64,000 nt of DNA, from positions 65,524 to 129,523 of the forward strand of contig CAVXTP010000017.1 in the NCBI GenBank assembly GCA_963764715.1, in the 5' to 3' direction. The position numbers and the translations under genes were made by a program. Positions within the stretch are counted from its first letter, which is position 1. Each line of letters opens with the position of its first letter. Below, piece by piece: positions 3,555-11,229 of the stretch. The notes beneath the pieces were generated by a model. That model did not search any database, had not been told where the DNA came from, and worked only from the letters and a program-made list of their open reading frames with translations. This stretch comes from an uncultured Acidobacteriota bacterium. GTDB taxonomy: Bacteria; Acidobacteriota; Thermoanaerobaculia; UBA5066; Gp7-AA6.

Positions 3555-4652
3555 ATGACTCTCCCCACCGCGCCCGTCGCGGCCCCCCGCGGCATTTCGA
3601 AGCTGTCGGACGGCGGGTCGCGCCCCTCGGGCGCGCGACCGCGGGCCGGGCGGATCGCTCTCTTCGCCGCCGGCCTCGTCGTCCTCGGCGCCGGGCTCGC
3701 GCTCGTCGGCTGGACGCCGATCGCCGAGAACCTCGCCCGCATCGGCCCTTACTTCGTCCTGCTCGTCGGCCTCTACGCGGCCGCGCAGATCGCGTTCACG
3801 CTCGGCTGGTGGGTGATCGCCGGCCGGCGCGGCCCGGCGTCGTTCCGGGACCTCTTCGCCGCGTATCTCGCGGGCGACTCGATCAACTACTTCACGAGCG
3901 TCGGCGGCGAGCCCGTCAAGGCCCACCTGCTGCGCGGAAAGATGGGCTTCGGCCCGGCCTTCGCCACGATCTGGGTCAACCGCAACGCGGACGTGCTCGC
4001 GCAGTGGCTCTTCCTCGTCGCCGGAGCGGCCGTCGCGCTGACCCGGTATTCCCTGCCGCCGCTGCCCCGCTTCCTCGTGATCGCCGGCCTGACGGTGCTC
4101 GGCGCGCTCGCGCTCGGGTTCACCGGCATGCAGCGGCGGGGATTCTTCGGGCCGATCCTGAGGCTCCTGAAGAAGGTCCCGCTCCTCGAGAAGCGGCTGT
4201 CGGGGCTCGAGACGCATGCCGAGGAAGTCGACGCGCGGATCCGGCTCTATTACCGGAGCGAGGAGCACGGCCTGCAGTTCGCGATCGCCGTCGTCTGGGG
4301 CTTCCTCGGCTGGTGCGGCGGCCTCGTCGAGACGTGGATCGTCCTGAGGCTGCTCTCCCCGACCCACACGTTCGCATCGGCCTTCGCGGTCGAGTCGCTG
4401 GCGATGATCCTGAACGGCATCCTGCTCTTCATTCCGGCCCGGATCGGGAGCGCCGAAGCCATCCGCCTCGGAGTCGCGGCGCTCGTGGGCCTGACGCCCG
4501 CACAGGGCGCGGCCTACGCGCTCGTCCGGCGGGCCCGCGAGCTGCTGTGGCTCGCGCCGGGGGGCGTCGTGCTCCTGAAGCACCATTTGATCGACGTGGC
4601 GCACTTGCGGCTCGAGCGGCTGGAGCCCTCGGGCCGGGAGGCGCGGCCATGA
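3555..4652 (+). CDS. polytopic membrane protein, MprF-type 'LPG-synthase TM region'/flippase-like family
   Basis: A 365-aa ORF starting 16 nt after the ispH stop, with about 8 hydrophobic helices (IALFAAGLVVLGAGLALVGW, YFVLLVGLYAAAQIAFTLGWWVIA, ...). The GGEPVKAHLL loop and overall layout resemble the flippase-like UPF0104 family. This is recognition from memory, not a search. Confidence 0.7.
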   Translation: MTLPTAPVAAPRGISKLSDGGSRPSGARPRAGRIALFAAGLVVLGAGLALVGWTPIAENLARIGPYFVLLVGLYAAAQIAFTLGWWVIAGRRGPASFRDLFAAYLAGDSINYFTSVGGEPVKAHLLRGKMGFGPAFATIWVNRNADVLAQWLFLVAGAAVALTRYSLPPLPRFLVIAGLTVLGALALGFTGMQRRGFFGPILRLLKKVPLLEKRLSGLETHAEEVDARIRLYYRSEEHGLQFAIAVVWGFLGWCGGLVETWIVLRLLSPTHTFASAFAVESLAMILNGILLFIPARIGSAEAIRLGVAALVGLTPAQGAAYALVRRARELLWLAPGGVVLLKHHLIDVAHLRLERLEPSGREARP

Positions 4653-4749
4653 CGGGCTTCTACGGTAACCTTCCCGCCGTGTGCGCCGACGTCCGGATCG
4701 CACGCCGCCTGACGGCTCGCGCCGAAGAGGCCGCGCGGGGGATCGTCCC

Positions 4750-8867: not shown

Positions 8868-9880
8868 GCCGCGTCCTCGTCCTCGGGCCCCCGGAGGGGC
8901 CGCCCGGAGTCGCGCCCGAATCGGTCCTCCTCGGACTGCCGATCGTGCGGCGGACGGCCCTCGCGGCCCGGCGCGCCGGCTTCGAGGAGATCGCGGTGAT
9001 CGAGCCGCCGCTTCCCGTCCTCGCCGCCCTCGTGGGCACCGACACCGAGGCGCTCGCCGAGGCGCCGCCCGACGCCGTGCGGATGGACTGGAACCGCGTC
9101 GTCGCGGTCCGCGACCTCGAGGCGATCCGCGACGGCGCGGCGCCCGCGTCGGTCGGCGTCGCGGTCGATTCCCCGGCCGATTTCCGGCGCGCCGAAGACC
9201 ACCTGCTCGCGAGCCTCGTCAAGGACACCGAGGGATTCATGTCGCGCCACGTCGAGCGCAAGATCTCGCTCGCGGTCAGCCGGCGCCTCGCCGCGACGAC
9301 GGTCACGCCGAACGCCATGACGCTTCTCTCGGTCTCGATCGGCCTCTTCGGGGCGACCTTCTTTCTCGACAGCACGGCGGCGAGCCAGACCGCGGGGGCC
9401 CTCCTCTTCCTGCTCCATTCGATCCTCGACGGCTGCGACGGCGAGCTCGCGCGACTGAAGTTCCAGGAGTCGCGCTCCGGCGGCCTGCTCGACTTCTGGG
9501 GAGACAACATCGTGCACGTCGCGGTCTTCGCGGCGATCGCGGCCGGCTGGAGCCGCGCGGTCGGCGCCGCGTGGCCGCTCGCGTTCGGCGCCCTCGCGGT
9601 CGGGGGCGCGCTCGCGTCCGCCTTCCTGGTCTACTCCCGCACGATGGCGGCGCCCCGCGAGGGGCCGCTCTACACCTCGGTCGCGACGGCCGCCGAGACT
9701 CGGCTTTCACGCGCTGCCGACGCCCTCTCACGGCGCGACTTCATCTACCTCGTTCTGATACTGTCCGCCTTCGGCAAGGCTGCCTGGTTCCTCGTTCTCA
9801 CGGCCGTCGGAGCGCCGGTTTACTTTCTCGTGCTGACGGCGATCGCGCTGGCCGAAAGACGCCGCCCAAGGAGTGCCTGA
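8864..9880 (+). CDS. CDP-alcohol phosphatidyltransferase family protein with ~125-aa soluble N-terminal domain (AF2299/DIPP-synthase-like architecture)
   Basis: The GTG at 8864 overlaps the upstream stop (GTGA). The signature D-G-x2-D-G-x2-A-R-x8-G-x3-D-x3-D is intact (LDGCDGELARLKFQESRSGGLLDFWGDN), there are 6 hydrophobic helices, and a soluble N-domain precedes them (VSRVLVLGPPEG...LLGLPIVRRTALAARRAGFEEIAVI). Confidence 0.85.
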   Translation: MSRVLVLGPPEGPPGVAPESVLLGLPIVRRTALAARRAGFEEIAVIEPPLPVLAALVGTDTEALAEAPPDAVRMDWNRVVAVRDLEAIRDGAAPASVGVAVDSPADFRRAEDHLLASLVKDTEGFMSRHVERKISLAVSRRLAATTVTPNAMTLLSVSIGLFGATFFLDSTAASQTAGALLFLLHSILDGCDGELARLKFQESRSGGLLDFWGDNIVHVAVFAAIAAGWSRAVGAAWPLAFGALAVGGALASAFLVYSRTMAAPREGPLYTSVATAAETRLSRAADALSRRDFIYLVLILSAFGKAAWFLVLTAVGAPVYFLVLTAIALAERRRPRSA

Positions 9881-11229
9881 TGACGGACCGGACTTCCTAC
9901 TACCCCGAGCTCGCGAAGACGATCGCCCCCGCGCAGGGCAAGCTCGCCGTCCTGCTGCCGGGCCTCGGCGCAGTCTCGACGACGTTGATCGCCGGCGTGC
10001 ACCTGATCCGCAAGGGCCTCGCCCGGCCGTTCGGGTCCGTGACCCAGATGCAGAAGCTGCGCCTCGGAAAGCGGTCGAAGCCGCGTTTCGTCCCGGTGCG
10101 GGAGCTCGTCCCCCTCACGGACCTCTCCGACCTGGTGTTCGGCGGCTGGGACATCTTCACCGACAACGCGTTCGAGGCGGCGTCCAAGGCCGGGGTCCTG
10201 TCGGCGGAGATGCTGGCGGCCGTCCGGCCGGAGCTCGAGTCGGTCCGCCCCATGTCGGCCGTCTTCGAGCGCTCCTGGGTCAAGAACCTCGACGGCCCCA
10301 ACGTCAAGAAGGGCGCGACGAAGATGGACCTCGCGGAAGCGCTCGTCCAGGACATCGAAGGCTTCCGCAAGTCCTCGGGCGCGGCGCGCGCCGTCATGGT
10401 CTGGTGCGGCTCGACCGAGGTCTACGCGCAGCAGAAGCCGGTTCACGAGACGCTCGCCGCGTTCGAGAAAGGCCTGAAGGAGAGCTCCCCCGACATCCCG
10501 CCTTCGATGATCTACGCGTACGCCGCGATCGCGAGCGGCACGCCGTACGCCAACGGCGCCCCGAACCTCTCGGTCGACGTCCCCGCGCTCTGGGAGATGG
10601 CGAAGGCGCGCGGCGTCCCGGTCGCCGGCAAGGACTTCAAGACCGGCCAGACGCTGATGAAGACGATCATCGCGCCGGGACTGAAGGCCCGCATGCTCGG
10701 CCTCAAGGGCTGGTTCTCGACCAACATCCTCGGCAACCGCGACGGCGAGGTCCTCGACGACCCCGGCTCCTTCCGCTCGAAGGAGGTCTCCAAGGCCTCG
10801 GTCCTCGACGACATCCTCCAGCCCGAGCTCTATCCCGAGCTCTACGGCGACTACTTCCACAAGGTCCGGATCGAGTACTACCCGCCCCGCGGGGACGCCA
10901 AGGAAGGCTGGGACAACATCGACATCGTCGGCTGGCTCGGCCAGCCGATGCAGATCAAGATCGACTTCCTGTGCCGCGACTCGATCCTCGCGGCGCCGGT
11001 CGTCCTCGACCTGCTCCTCTTTCTCGACCTGGCCGGCCGCGCCGGGCTCGCGGGCATCCAGGAGTGGCTGTCCTTCTACTTCAAGTCGCCGATGGCGCGT
11101 CCGGACCTGCGGCCCGAGCACGATCTCTTCGTGCAGCACATGAAGCTCGCGAACACGCTGCGGATCCTGGTCGGCGAAGAGGTCATCGACCACTCGGGAC
11201 TGGACTACTACGAGGGGGCCGAGGCCTAG
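9880..11229 (+). CDS. ino1: myo-inositol-1-phosphate (inositol-3-phosphate) synthase
   Basis: The ATG at 9880 overlaps the upstream stop by 1 nt (TGATG). The sequence begins MTDRTSYYPELAK... Motifs include GTPYANGAPN, AGKDFKTGQTLMKT, WFSTNILGNRDGEVL and SKEVSKASVL, which match the pattern I recall from archaeal/bacterial MIPS. Confidence 0.9.
   Translation: MTDRTSYYPELAKTIAPAQGKLAVLLPGLGAVSTTLIAGVHLIRKGLARPFGSVTQMQKLRLGKRSKPRFVPVRELVPLTDLSDLVFGGWDIFTDNAFEAASKAGVLSAEMLAAVRPELESVRPMSAVFERSWVKNLDGPNVKKGATKMDLAEALVQDIEGFRKSSGAARAVMVWCGSTEVYAQQKPVHETLAAFEKGLKESSPDIPPSMIYAYAAIASGTPYANGAPNLSVDVPALWEMAKARGVPVAGKDFKTGQTLMKTIIAPGLKARMLGLKGWFSTNILGNRDGEVLDDPGSFRSKEVSKASVLDDILQPELYPELYGDYFHKVRIEYYPPRGDAKEGWDNIDIVGWLGQPMQIKIDFLCRDSILAAPVVLDLLLFLDLAGRAGLAGIQEWLSFYFKSPMARPDLRPEHDLFVQHMKLANTLRILVGEEVIDHSGLDYYEGAEA

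Follow-up and report, generated by a model that had tools for sequence, protein, structure and literature searches.

The 64,000-nucleotide stretch analysed here (hereafter the window; contig CAVXTP010000017.1 of GenBank assembly GCA_963764715.1, from an uncultured member of the Acidobacteriota) carries at positions 3555-11229 seven consecutive genes, g1 to g7, that probably encode an expanded, alternative version of the cytidine diphosphate (CDP)-inositol, or Kennedy-like, route to an inositol-phosphate membrane lipid, with amination of the inositol ring as an accessory step. In order, the genes encode a membrane protein of the LPG_synthase_TM family (g1), a nucleoside triphosphate (NTP) transferase (g2), an ATP-grasp enzyme (g3), a class-III aminotransferase (g4), a Gfo/Idh/MocA oxidoreductase (g5), a CDP-alcohol phosphotransferase (g6) and a synthase of myo-inositol-1-phosphate (MIPS; g7). 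These are the families named in an initial annotation made from the DNA alone, and all seven hold in Pfam, NCBIfam and PDB searches of the g1-g7 proteins. The core of the route is already known as a predicted kind of pathway; what is new is the insertion of the aminotransferase and dehydrogenase, the constant presence of the ATP-grasp enzyme and the setting in hopanoid gene islands.

In the proposed pathway, MIPS would, as its strong homology suggests, convert glucose-6-phosphate into 1L-myo-inositol-1-phosphate, g2 would activate an inositol phosphate with CTP to give CDP-inositol, and g6, by homology a member of the CDP-alcohol transferase family, would transfer phospho-inositol to a membrane lipid alcohol. 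The ATP-grasp enzyme and a soluble HAD-IA phosphatase are envisaged as obligatory partners of g2 and g6, the former phosphorylating the MIPS product and the latter removing the original phosphate, before or after the transfer. The diester would then lie at the canonical D-1 position, the phosphate having been moved according to the logic of nucleotide-heptose synthesis, in which HldE and GmhB provide kinase, HAD phosphatase and nucleotidyltransferase. The oxidoreductase and the aminotransferase may act as an accessory pair on a ring hydroxyl, from which an inosamine-type, zwitterionic head group would result, and g1, a proposed lipid flippase, would flip the finished lipid.

The entry into the pathway is the most securely assigned part. 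MIPS (myo-inositol-1-phosphate, or inositol-3-phosphate, synthase; 9880-11229, +), which ends the run, matches its Pfam family with an E-value of 2.5e-95, has the B. thetaiotaomicron enzyme BT_1526 as its nearest solved structure (7NWR; 551 bits, E 2.6e-164) and is 73-98% identical across Acidobacteriota, Nitrospirota and Methylomirabilota in tblastn comparisons. The NTP transferase g2 (4750-5439, +; reading frame open from 4681) belongs to NTP_transf_3 (2.8e-13) and shows a weak, full-length similarity to IPCT (NF041135, 2.4e-7 and 30.1 bits to the IPCT half; PDB 2xme, 0.0067), from which we propose that it is a CTP:inositol-phosphate cytidylyltransferase. The membrane CDP-alcohol phosphotransferase g6 (8864-9880, +) matches CDP-OH_P_transf (1.1e-12) and the structures 4o6m (1.4e-21) and 4mnd (8.7e-19), and its motif DGCDGELARLKFQESRSGGLLDFWGD, read in translation, is the canonical DGxDGxxAR..G..D..D. 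It is of the AF2299/DIPPS type, with AF2299 and IPCT/DIPPS as nearest solved relatives, and resembles phosphatidylinositol phosphate (PIP) synthases only weakly (5.6e-10 and 5e-6). Its match to NF041135 covers the DIPPS half only (3e-29, 102.3 bits), below the equivalog cut-off of 580 bits set over both domains, and in our own reading its N-terminal nucleotidyltransferase-like domain is degenerate, with LGPPEGPPG in place of the expected G-x-G-x-R.

The arrangement of these genes is not due to chance, as its order recurs across 80 fetched species-level genomes. Relatives of g3 were found in 285 species-level genomes in a scan of one genome per species, and 80 loci, from Acidobacteriota, Nitrospirota and Methylomirabilota/Rokubacteria, were fetched and searched by tblastn with the window proteins; co-occurrence was counted in the 54 loci with enough flanking sequence. 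Gene order is alike nearly everywhere in the fetched loci of the three groups, with g2 present in all 54 of the counted loci, g6 in 53, g4 in 52 and g1, g5 and g7 in 51 each. The initial annotation had made its proposal depend on the aminotransferase, ATP-grasp and flippase-like genes keeping company with MIPS and the CDP-alcohol transferase elsewhere, and this is strongly borne out. The co-occurrence reaches Ignavibacteria and Elusimicrobiota, and the module is carried, in all, by Acidobacteriota, Nitrospirota, Methylomirabilota, Elusimicrobiota, Ignavibacteria and Bacteroidales. Judging from record titles, the carriers are mostly metagenome-assembled genomes (MAGs) from environmental metagenomes. 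An Ignavibacteria locus (L086:6773-17101; GCA_049700455.1) holds a full eight-gene set in which genes for MlaE, MlaF and MlaD stand between the NTP transferase and the ATP-grasp enzyme, and this insertion is the strongest bioinformatic argument for a membrane-lipid product.

Some loci have features of their own. In the same Ignavibacteria locus MIPS is followed by a gene for capsule assembly (Wzi). Between the CDP-alcohol transferase and MIPS of an Elusimicrobiota module lies a protein of 567 aa without a Pfam match (L081:16069-17772), and the HAD, NTP-transferase and ATP-grasp domains of that module are joined in a triple fusion. The Rokubacteria locus L080 has a rearranged module and no MIPS; an additional DIPPS-like protein of 564 aa is encoded upstream of g1, and downstream stands an ArnT-like glycosyltransferase (features at L080:2798-4492 and L080:13285-15033). 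The matches to dxs, g4, g6 and g7 in L013 and L018 (MFD long-read MAGs) are broken into several pieces by frame shifts, which are probably assembly indels rather than signs of pseudogenes.

A counterpart of the core has been described in Bacteroides and Prevotella. Where members of these genera lack the PIP-synthase cluster of B. thetaiotaomicron, an 'alternate cluster' adjoins MIPS (Heaver et al. 2022; PMC9246714), made up of an NTP-transferase, a CDP-alcohol phosphatidyltransferase with the motif DX2DGX2AR...GX3DX3D and a HAD hydrolase; a lysyl-PG-synthase-like protein is encoded close by. CDP-inositol was proposed as the intermediate of this cluster, the pathway being a prediction, and phosphatidylinositol (PI)-dihydroceramide occurs in organisms with only the alternate cluster (B. 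vulgatus, P. veroralis), a link that is correlative (PMC9246714). More remote g3 relatives, at ~35% identity, carry the names Phocaeicola sp., Bacteroides ilei and Mediterranea, and in two Bacteroidales loci, L089 and L090, the gene order is NTP_transferase, ATP-grasp, CDP-OH_P_transf, LPG_synthase_TM, HAD, MFS, PfkB, MIPS and CarboxypepD_reg. The window proteins match these loci in tblastn with 35-36% identity for g3 (E 1e-36 to 1e-39), 52-53% for g7, 30% for g2, 33% over the motif region for g6 and 22-23% for g1 (E 1e-10 to 1e-12). Judged by gene content and similarity, the two neighbourhoods are the published alternate cluster, BT_1521-like and BT_1527-like neighbours included.

The shared part thus comprises MIPS, the nucleotidyltransferase and the motif-bearing CDP-alcohol transferase in one run, together with a g1-like LPG protein. 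The HAD gene is present in Bacteroidales, whereas the window has a 34-codon relic and most of its relatives an intact gene; the Bacteroidales cluster is without the aminotransferase/dehydrogenase pair; and in the window and its relatives the module is joined to a dxs-ispH operon and, in relatives, set in hopanoid islands. The published description makes no mention of an ATP-grasp enzyme, which may well fill one of the two locus tags left unlisted there: from locus-tag spacing and the Phocaeicola and B. ilei loci, BVU_RS13100 would be the ATP-grasp enzyme and BVU_RS13110 the LPG_TM protein. The initial annotation's statement that the cluster has no characterised equivalent therefore needs amending, since the core is orthologous to the Bacteroidales alternate cluster, and stands only in that the latter is itself a predicted pathway. 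Between HAD and MIPS, the Bacteroidales loci hold an MFS transporter and a PfkB-family kinase (L089:11570-13690, L090:11547-13716), a pair that could form a salvage branch of inositol uptake and phosphorylation. The mycobacterial/B. thetaiotaomicron PIP-synthase route, in which CDP-diacylglycerol and inositol-1-phosphate are joined before a PIP phosphatase acts, is a further point of comparison. It also starts from MIPS and uses a CDP-alcohol-family transferase and a phosphatase, but the window has a soluble nucleotidyltransferase and an ATP-grasp enzyme instead of the BT_1522/23/25 set, the module phosphatase is of the HAD-IA and not the PgpA type, and g6, as noted, is distant from PIP synthases.

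The initial annotation had left the product as a phospholipid or a solute. A lipid is favoured over a solute because of the Mla genes inside the module, the HpnN and MlaC neighbours described below, and the homology to the Bacteroidales cluster with the report of PI-dihydroceramide. The case for a soluble osmolyte starts from g6, whose nearest solved relatives are AF2299 and IPCT/DIPPS and whose top NCBIfam match is the DIPPS half. Like the IPCT/DIPPS pathway (Archaeoglobus AF0263; AF2299 structure), g6 combines an N-terminal nucleotidyltransferase-like domain with a CDP-alcohol transferase membrane domain, and the window also has MIPS and a cytidylyltransferase-like protein. With a phosphatase, all four activities of a di-myo-inositol phosphate (DIP) pathway are formally present, so that DIP or a related solute could be made, modified by the other genes and exported by g1; hopanoid genes, moreover, are reported to correlate with tolerance of high osmolarity. 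The scores of the window proteins nevertheless fall far under the equivalog cut-off, the N-terminal domain of g6 is degenerate, and the ATP-grasp enzyme, the flippase-like protein, the Mla partners and the range of hosts speak for a lipid. The module almost always includes an LPG_synthase_TM protein, and Bacteroidales with the alternate cluster make an inositol sphingolipid. DIP is typical of (hyper)thermophiles, whereas the carriers of the module are mostly known from environmental metagenomes. We regard an osmolyte as very improbable.

The ATP-grasp enzyme g3 (5436-6305, +) belongs to a family without annotation, Pfam and NCBIfam giving none beyond weak RimK matches, and could be a kinase or a carboxylate ligase. 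The three-domain fold and the Mg/ATP-binding D...D/E-x-N motif of the ATP-grasp superfamily are both present, and the metal-site segment VIDLNAWPSF aligns with VIDINAFPGY of ITPK1 (D-x-N), the corresponding motif of PsnB being E-L-N. A homologue search returned 1915 matches, the top 120 of which were at least 69% identical and named Thermoanaerobaculia or Acidobacteriota. A first AlphaFold2 model, built on 21 close homologues, reached a pLDDT of 62.8 and was not used; the alignment was rebuilt from a second homologue search. A search of 1.84 billion representatives gave 991 relatives, 131 of them at E<=1e-30. Several relatives are fused to other members of the module, namely to the NTP-transferase (P0241, P0243, P0288, P0326, P0340, P0354), to HAD and NTP-transferase together (P0290, Elusimicrobiota) and to the CDP-alcohol transferase (P0245, L014). 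The loci of these relatives always hold an NTP-transferase, an ATP-grasp enzyme, a CDP-alcohol transferase and a HAD, and usually an LPG_synthase_TM protein, while MIPS and the aminotransferase/dehydrogenase pair are frequent yet dispensable neighbours.

The ATP-grasp enzyme is consequently a constant core member of the inositol-lipid module, the Bacteroidales cluster included, because it persists in loci that lack g4 and g5 and, in some genomes, forms one protein with the NTP-transferase, HAD or CDP-alcohol transferase. This reverses its place in the initial annotation, which had cast it as a late modifying step. The fusions of HAD, NTP-transferase and ATP-grasp domains and the D-x-N metal-site motif shared with ITPK1, together with a soluble IA-type HAD that has sugar-bisphosphate phosphatases among its best matches, suggest the preferred function of inositol-phosphate kinase; the alternative is a carboxylate ligase that would acylate the head group. 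The constancy of the ATP-grasp enzyme and HAD calls for a reason that also fits Bacteroidales making plain PI-dihydroceramide, and it is for this that the relocation of a phosphate is proposed. An amino-acid pathway of the LysW/LysX type, which likewise combines ATP-grasp and class-III aminotransferase enzymes, was considered and rejected: LysW, LysZ and LysY genes are absent and the constant partners are lipid-head-group enzymes.

The phosphatase expected as partner of g3 has largely decayed in the window. The initial annotation had recorded a gap of 97 nt between g1 and g2, but this stretch is the relic of a HAD-IA phosphatase gene: a 34-codon open reading frame (MTGFYGNLPAVCADVRIARRL...; 4649-4753, +) overlaps both neighbours, at the stop of g1 (ATGA) and at the start of g2 (GTGA), and fits the HAD motif SNFYGNLxxVCxDxGIA of the relatives. 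An intact gene for a 220-260-aa HAD-IA phosphatase occupies this position in most of the 80 fetched loci, and variously decayed versions of differing lengths are found in the closest relatives (L001-L004) and in L051. In relatives of this type an intact HAD lies a few kb upstream of dxs on the opposite strand; in the window, the phosphatase survives at the module position as the relic only. The HAD is soluble and of the IA type, and its best matches include sugar-bisphosphate phosphatases, among them a ribulose-bisphosphate phosphatase.

Between g3 and g6 lies the aminotransferase/dehydrogenase pair. The aminotransferase g4 (6302-7639, +) is a class-III (omega), pyridoxal phosphate (PLP)-dependent enzyme (Aminotran_3, PF00202; 3.3e-100) with dialkylglycine decarboxylase and gamma-aminobutyrate (GABA) aminotransferase as top PDB matches (~247 bits). 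It is 70-95% identical across three phyla and 52-60% in Ignavibacteria and Elusimicrobiota and in a metagenome contig without an assigned lineage (L087), and is not of the DegT/StrS type, the PF01041 match that marks inosose aminotransferases being absent. The NAD(P) oxidoreductase g5 (7830-8867, +) carries PF01408, PF22725 and PF02894. Its top PDB match is 6nor (1.6e-20), which we take to be a sugar dehydrogenase paired with an aminotransferase in gentamicin synthesis, and scyllo-inositol and inositol 2-dehydrogenases match at 1e-10 to 1e-11; at 54.7 bits against the IolG equivalog (TIGR04380; cut-off 355), it can be placed only in the broad Gfo/Idh/MocA family. Adjacent to each other and inherited together, the two genes occur as a pair in 51-52 of the 54 well-covered loci. 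They are absent from a small Acidobacteriota sub-group that keeps the rest of the module (L056, L058, L075, L076, L079) and from all Bacteroidales loci looked at.

The simplest reading of the pair is that g5 would oxidise a ring hydroxyl that g4 then transaminates. Pairs of oxidation and transamination are well known from kanosamine synthesis (NtdC/NtdA/NtdB) and from streptomycin and rhizopine synthesis (inositol dehydrogenase with inosose aminotransferase). As in those systems, a Gfo/Idh/MocA dehydrogenase adjoins a PLP aminotransferase, a HAD phosphatase is part of the system and g5 has a weak likeness to inositol dehydrogenases; unlike in those systems, g4 is of class III, glycosyltransferase and antibiotic genes are missing and the context is that of a membrane lipid. 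An aminocyclitol antibiotic or rhizopine-type cluster was rejected, as glycosyltransferase, methyltransferase and DegT genes are absent and the module is spread over six lineages. The pair could, alternatively, belong to a separate unit that shares only the operon with a Bacteroidales-like inositol-lipid core and acts on another substrate, for example by aminating the side-chain aldehyde of a hopanoid in the manner of HpnO. HpnO is described as an "aminotransferase family protein", and its broad class is that of g4, ornithine/GABA-type class III; moreover, the Acidobacteriota sub-group and the Bacteroidales manage without the pair. In almost all loci, however, g4 and g5 stand between g3 and g6 with overlaps at the g3/g4 and g5/g6 junctions, and the modules of Ignavibacteria and Elusimicrobiota retain them in loci without hpn neighbours. 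HpnO, furthermore, needs no partner dehydrogenase. Two separate units are accordingly judged improbable, and ring amination within a single module is preferred.

The remaining member, g1 (3555-4652, +), is a polytopic protein with at least six hydrophobic segments that matches LPG_synthase_TM (PF03706, 6.9e-26), the family of the MprF flippase domain, HpnL and BT_1521-like proteins. PF03706 is the only Pfam match in its 365 residues; the C-terminal, aminoacyl-tRNA-dependent synthase domain of MprF was not found. Its top NCBIfam match is HpnL (TIGR03476), a family with no known function according to recent hopanoid genomics papers, in which inositol is not mentioned. At 118.7 bits against a cut-off of 195.65, g1 was rejected as a true HpnL.

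The hopanoid connection extends beyond g1. In Methylomirabilales (L069, L070, L077), genes for HpnN-like, MlaC (HpnM-type) and PagL-like proteins and a squalene-hopene cyclase gene (shc, 793 bits) lie directly upstream of g1; in the Nitrospirae locus L045, ispG and HpnH (553 bits) follow the module; and in 14-21 Acidobacteriota loci, HpnH-like, HpnA (491 bits), HpnG-like and squalene-synthase-like genes are found upstream of dxs. The initial annotation had treated dxs and ispH as mere neighbours, a view that the shc, hpnH, hpnA, hpnN and ispG genes adjoining the module in three phyla do not support, and this embedding in hopanoid/isoprenoid islands suggests that the lipid is made together with hopanoids and destined for the outer membrane. 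The islands resemble described hpn islands in that the protein closest to g1 is HpnL and in that shc, hpnH, hpnA, hpnN, ispG, dxs and ispH flank the module in relatives; they differ in that described islands have neither MIPS nor a CDP-alcohol transferase, and in the score of g1. In eight Acidobacteriota loci (among them L039:419-2023, -), a B12-binding radical-SAM/DUF4070 gene with the architecture of the hopanoid methylases HpnP/HpnR lies upstream of dxs.

These neighbours raise the question of whether the module makes a hopanoid head group, with g6 placing phospho-inositol or phospho-inosamine on the terminal hydroxyl of a bacteriohopanepolyol and the HpnL-like g1 and HpnN/HpnM-type transporters handling the product, which would be a new class of composite phospho-hopanoid. 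The presence of the module within hpn islands in three phyla speaks for this, as do the adjoining dxs-ispH genes with several start/stop overlaps and the best match of g1 to a family without known function; the hopanoid papers, silent on inositol, hold nothing that contradicts it. To our knowledge, on the other hand, no phosphorus-containing bacteriohopanepolyol is known, and g1 reaches 119 of the 196 bits required for HpnL. In Ignavibacteria and Elusimicrobiota the full module, g4 and g5 included, has no hpn neighbours, and neither has the core in Bacteroidales; because the module is found in these three lineages without such neighbours, a hopanoid cannot be an obligatory substrate. Squalene-hopene cyclase is reported to be absent or very rare in Bacteroidota. 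A dedicated hopanoid head-group pathway is thus unlikely, although less so than the osmolyte or the two separate units, and an inositol-phosphate membrane lipid remains the preferred product. A more specific proposal, offered tentatively and with more doubt than confidence, is that a so far undescribed membrane lipid with a phospho-aminocyclitol (inosamine) head group is made by soil and freshwater Acidobacteriota (Thermoanaerobaculia) and by Nitrospirota, Methylomirabilota, Ignavibacteria and Elusimicrobiota, possibly anchored to or functionally paired with bacteriohopanepolyols in hopanoid producers, and that the ATP-grasp enzyme and HAD provide the missing step of the alternative phosphoinositol-lipid pathway, possibly by relocating the phosphate before CDP activation, in gut Bacteroides and Prevotella as well.

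Several observations weigh against a CDP-inositol route with ring amination. The similarity of g2 to IPCT is weak and g6, at 102 bits, stays far under the 580 bits required for the DIPPS equivalog, so that the donor could be another CDP-alcohol. The aminotransferase resembles GABA/ornithine-type omega-aminotransferases, and known inosose aminotransferases are of the DegT/DnrJ/EryC1/StrS type rather than class III. Bacteroidales make plain PI-dihydroceramide without a g4/g5-type pair, ring amination being our own extension of the scheme, and the pathway of this Bacteroidales counterpart is itself a prediction. Finally, dxs and ispH are the only isoprenoid neighbours seen in the window and in L001-L004, the relatives nearest to it; the hpn genes are seen in other relatives. 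Taken as a whole, the interpretation in the initial annotation kept its families and its co-conservation, while the role given to the ATP-grasp enzyme, the supposed lack of a counterpart and the treatment of the hopanoid context had to be revised.

Inositol lipids are considered rare in bacteria. If the proposed pathway is correct, they extend to abundant, mostly uncultured environmental lineages, given the ATP-grasp relatives alone in 285 species-level genomes. The module would also provide a concrete set of partners for the second route to phosphoinositol lipids that has been predicted in bacteria, including an ATP-grasp enzyme that was not listed in the original description. The insertion of g4 and g5 predicts an amino-inositol head group, of which no description was found for phospholipids in the searchable literature, and the embedding in hopanoid islands is a lead both for the unexplained HpnL family and for the unassigned nitrogen- or phosphorus-bearing biomarker lipids of geochemistry. 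Literature searches gave nothing relevant on clusters of hopanoid and inositol genes, inositol lipids in Methylomirabilis or Acidobacteria, newer work on CDP-inositol or inosamine phospholipids.

The seven genes are probably the distal part of one operon, dxs-ispH-g1...g7. Gene calls were made by third-position GC (GC3) frame analysis together with the list of open reading frames and their translations, as such lists are noisy at the ~71% G+C of the window. Both agree with the initial annotation that seven same-strand genes stand directly behind dxs-ispH, giving a run of nine on the + strand. The run is headed by dxs (1-deoxy-D-xylulose-5-phosphate synthase; 612-2561, +; GC3 0.92; start MSILSRIEGPKDL), which is 67-97% identical in 44 of the 54 loci, and continues with ispH (HMBPP reductase; 2558-3538, +), 73-98% identical across Acidobacteriota loci; the dxs-ispH pair is present in 44 of the 54, and the two labels are taken from the initial annotation and from conservation only. 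The ispH start could be the GTG at 2558, which overlaps the dxs stop (GTGA), or that at 2564, and with the former dxs and ispH may be coupled as well. The junctions g2/g3 (ATGA), g3/g4 (ATGA), g5/g6 (GTGA) and g6/g7 (TGATG) were read from the sequence, and the overlaps along the run from dxs to g7 amount to 4, 4, 4, 4 and 1 nt, one being the candidate dxs/ispH overlap. The four overlaps and the gaps of 16 nt (ispH-g1), 97 nt (g1-g2) and 190 nt (g4-g5) given in the initial annotation are confirmed, except that the 97 nt hold the HAD relic and that the dxs/ispH overlap had not been listed.

The GC-rich spacer between g4 and g5 (7640-7829, +) is the sole sizeable gap of the run and gave no Rfam, promoter or terminator match. 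Close relatives (L001, L002) differ in the distance between the g4 and g5 matches, which in the Methylomirabilales loci L069 and L077 is no more than ~8-14 nt. An Rfam scan of the whole window returned no match, and promoter and terminator scans of positions 1-12000 gave none above shuffled background, for which reason no transcription boundaries are claimed. Downstream of MIPS, a gene for a DinB-like polymerase (11318-12439), so named from its translation, is followed by citrate synthase, a Cys/Met PLP enzyme and others. The module is taken to end at 11229 because these genes are unrelated to it.

To the left of dxs and divergent from it, the window opens inside the first gene of a second, paralogous module. 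This gene (1-556, -) is the 5' part of a conserved protein of ~305 aa, fam307, with 92% identity to L001:4205-5122 (-) in tblastn; fam307 was found in 57 fetched sequences and has no Pfam or NCBIfam match. By comparison with relatives, the rest of the module lies past the window edge. In the nearest relatives, the divergent genes left of dxs encode the 305-aa fam307 protein, a dihaem cytochrome c-like protein (in L001), a second LPG_synthase_TM protein, a HAD and an ATP-grasp::CDP-alcohol-transferase fusion (L001:422-5122, -; L014:1434-6210, -; L082:1145-6004). The organism probably possesses two sets of transferases with a single MIPS and a single nucleotidyltransferase in common.

Elsewhere in the window, positions 24263-27457 (-) encode a protein of 1064 aa that carries TIG and S-layer homology (SLH) domains, and positions 32565-34379 (-) a full-length peptidase M2 of the angiotensin-converting-enzyme type (759 bits), a family that is uncommon in bacteria.

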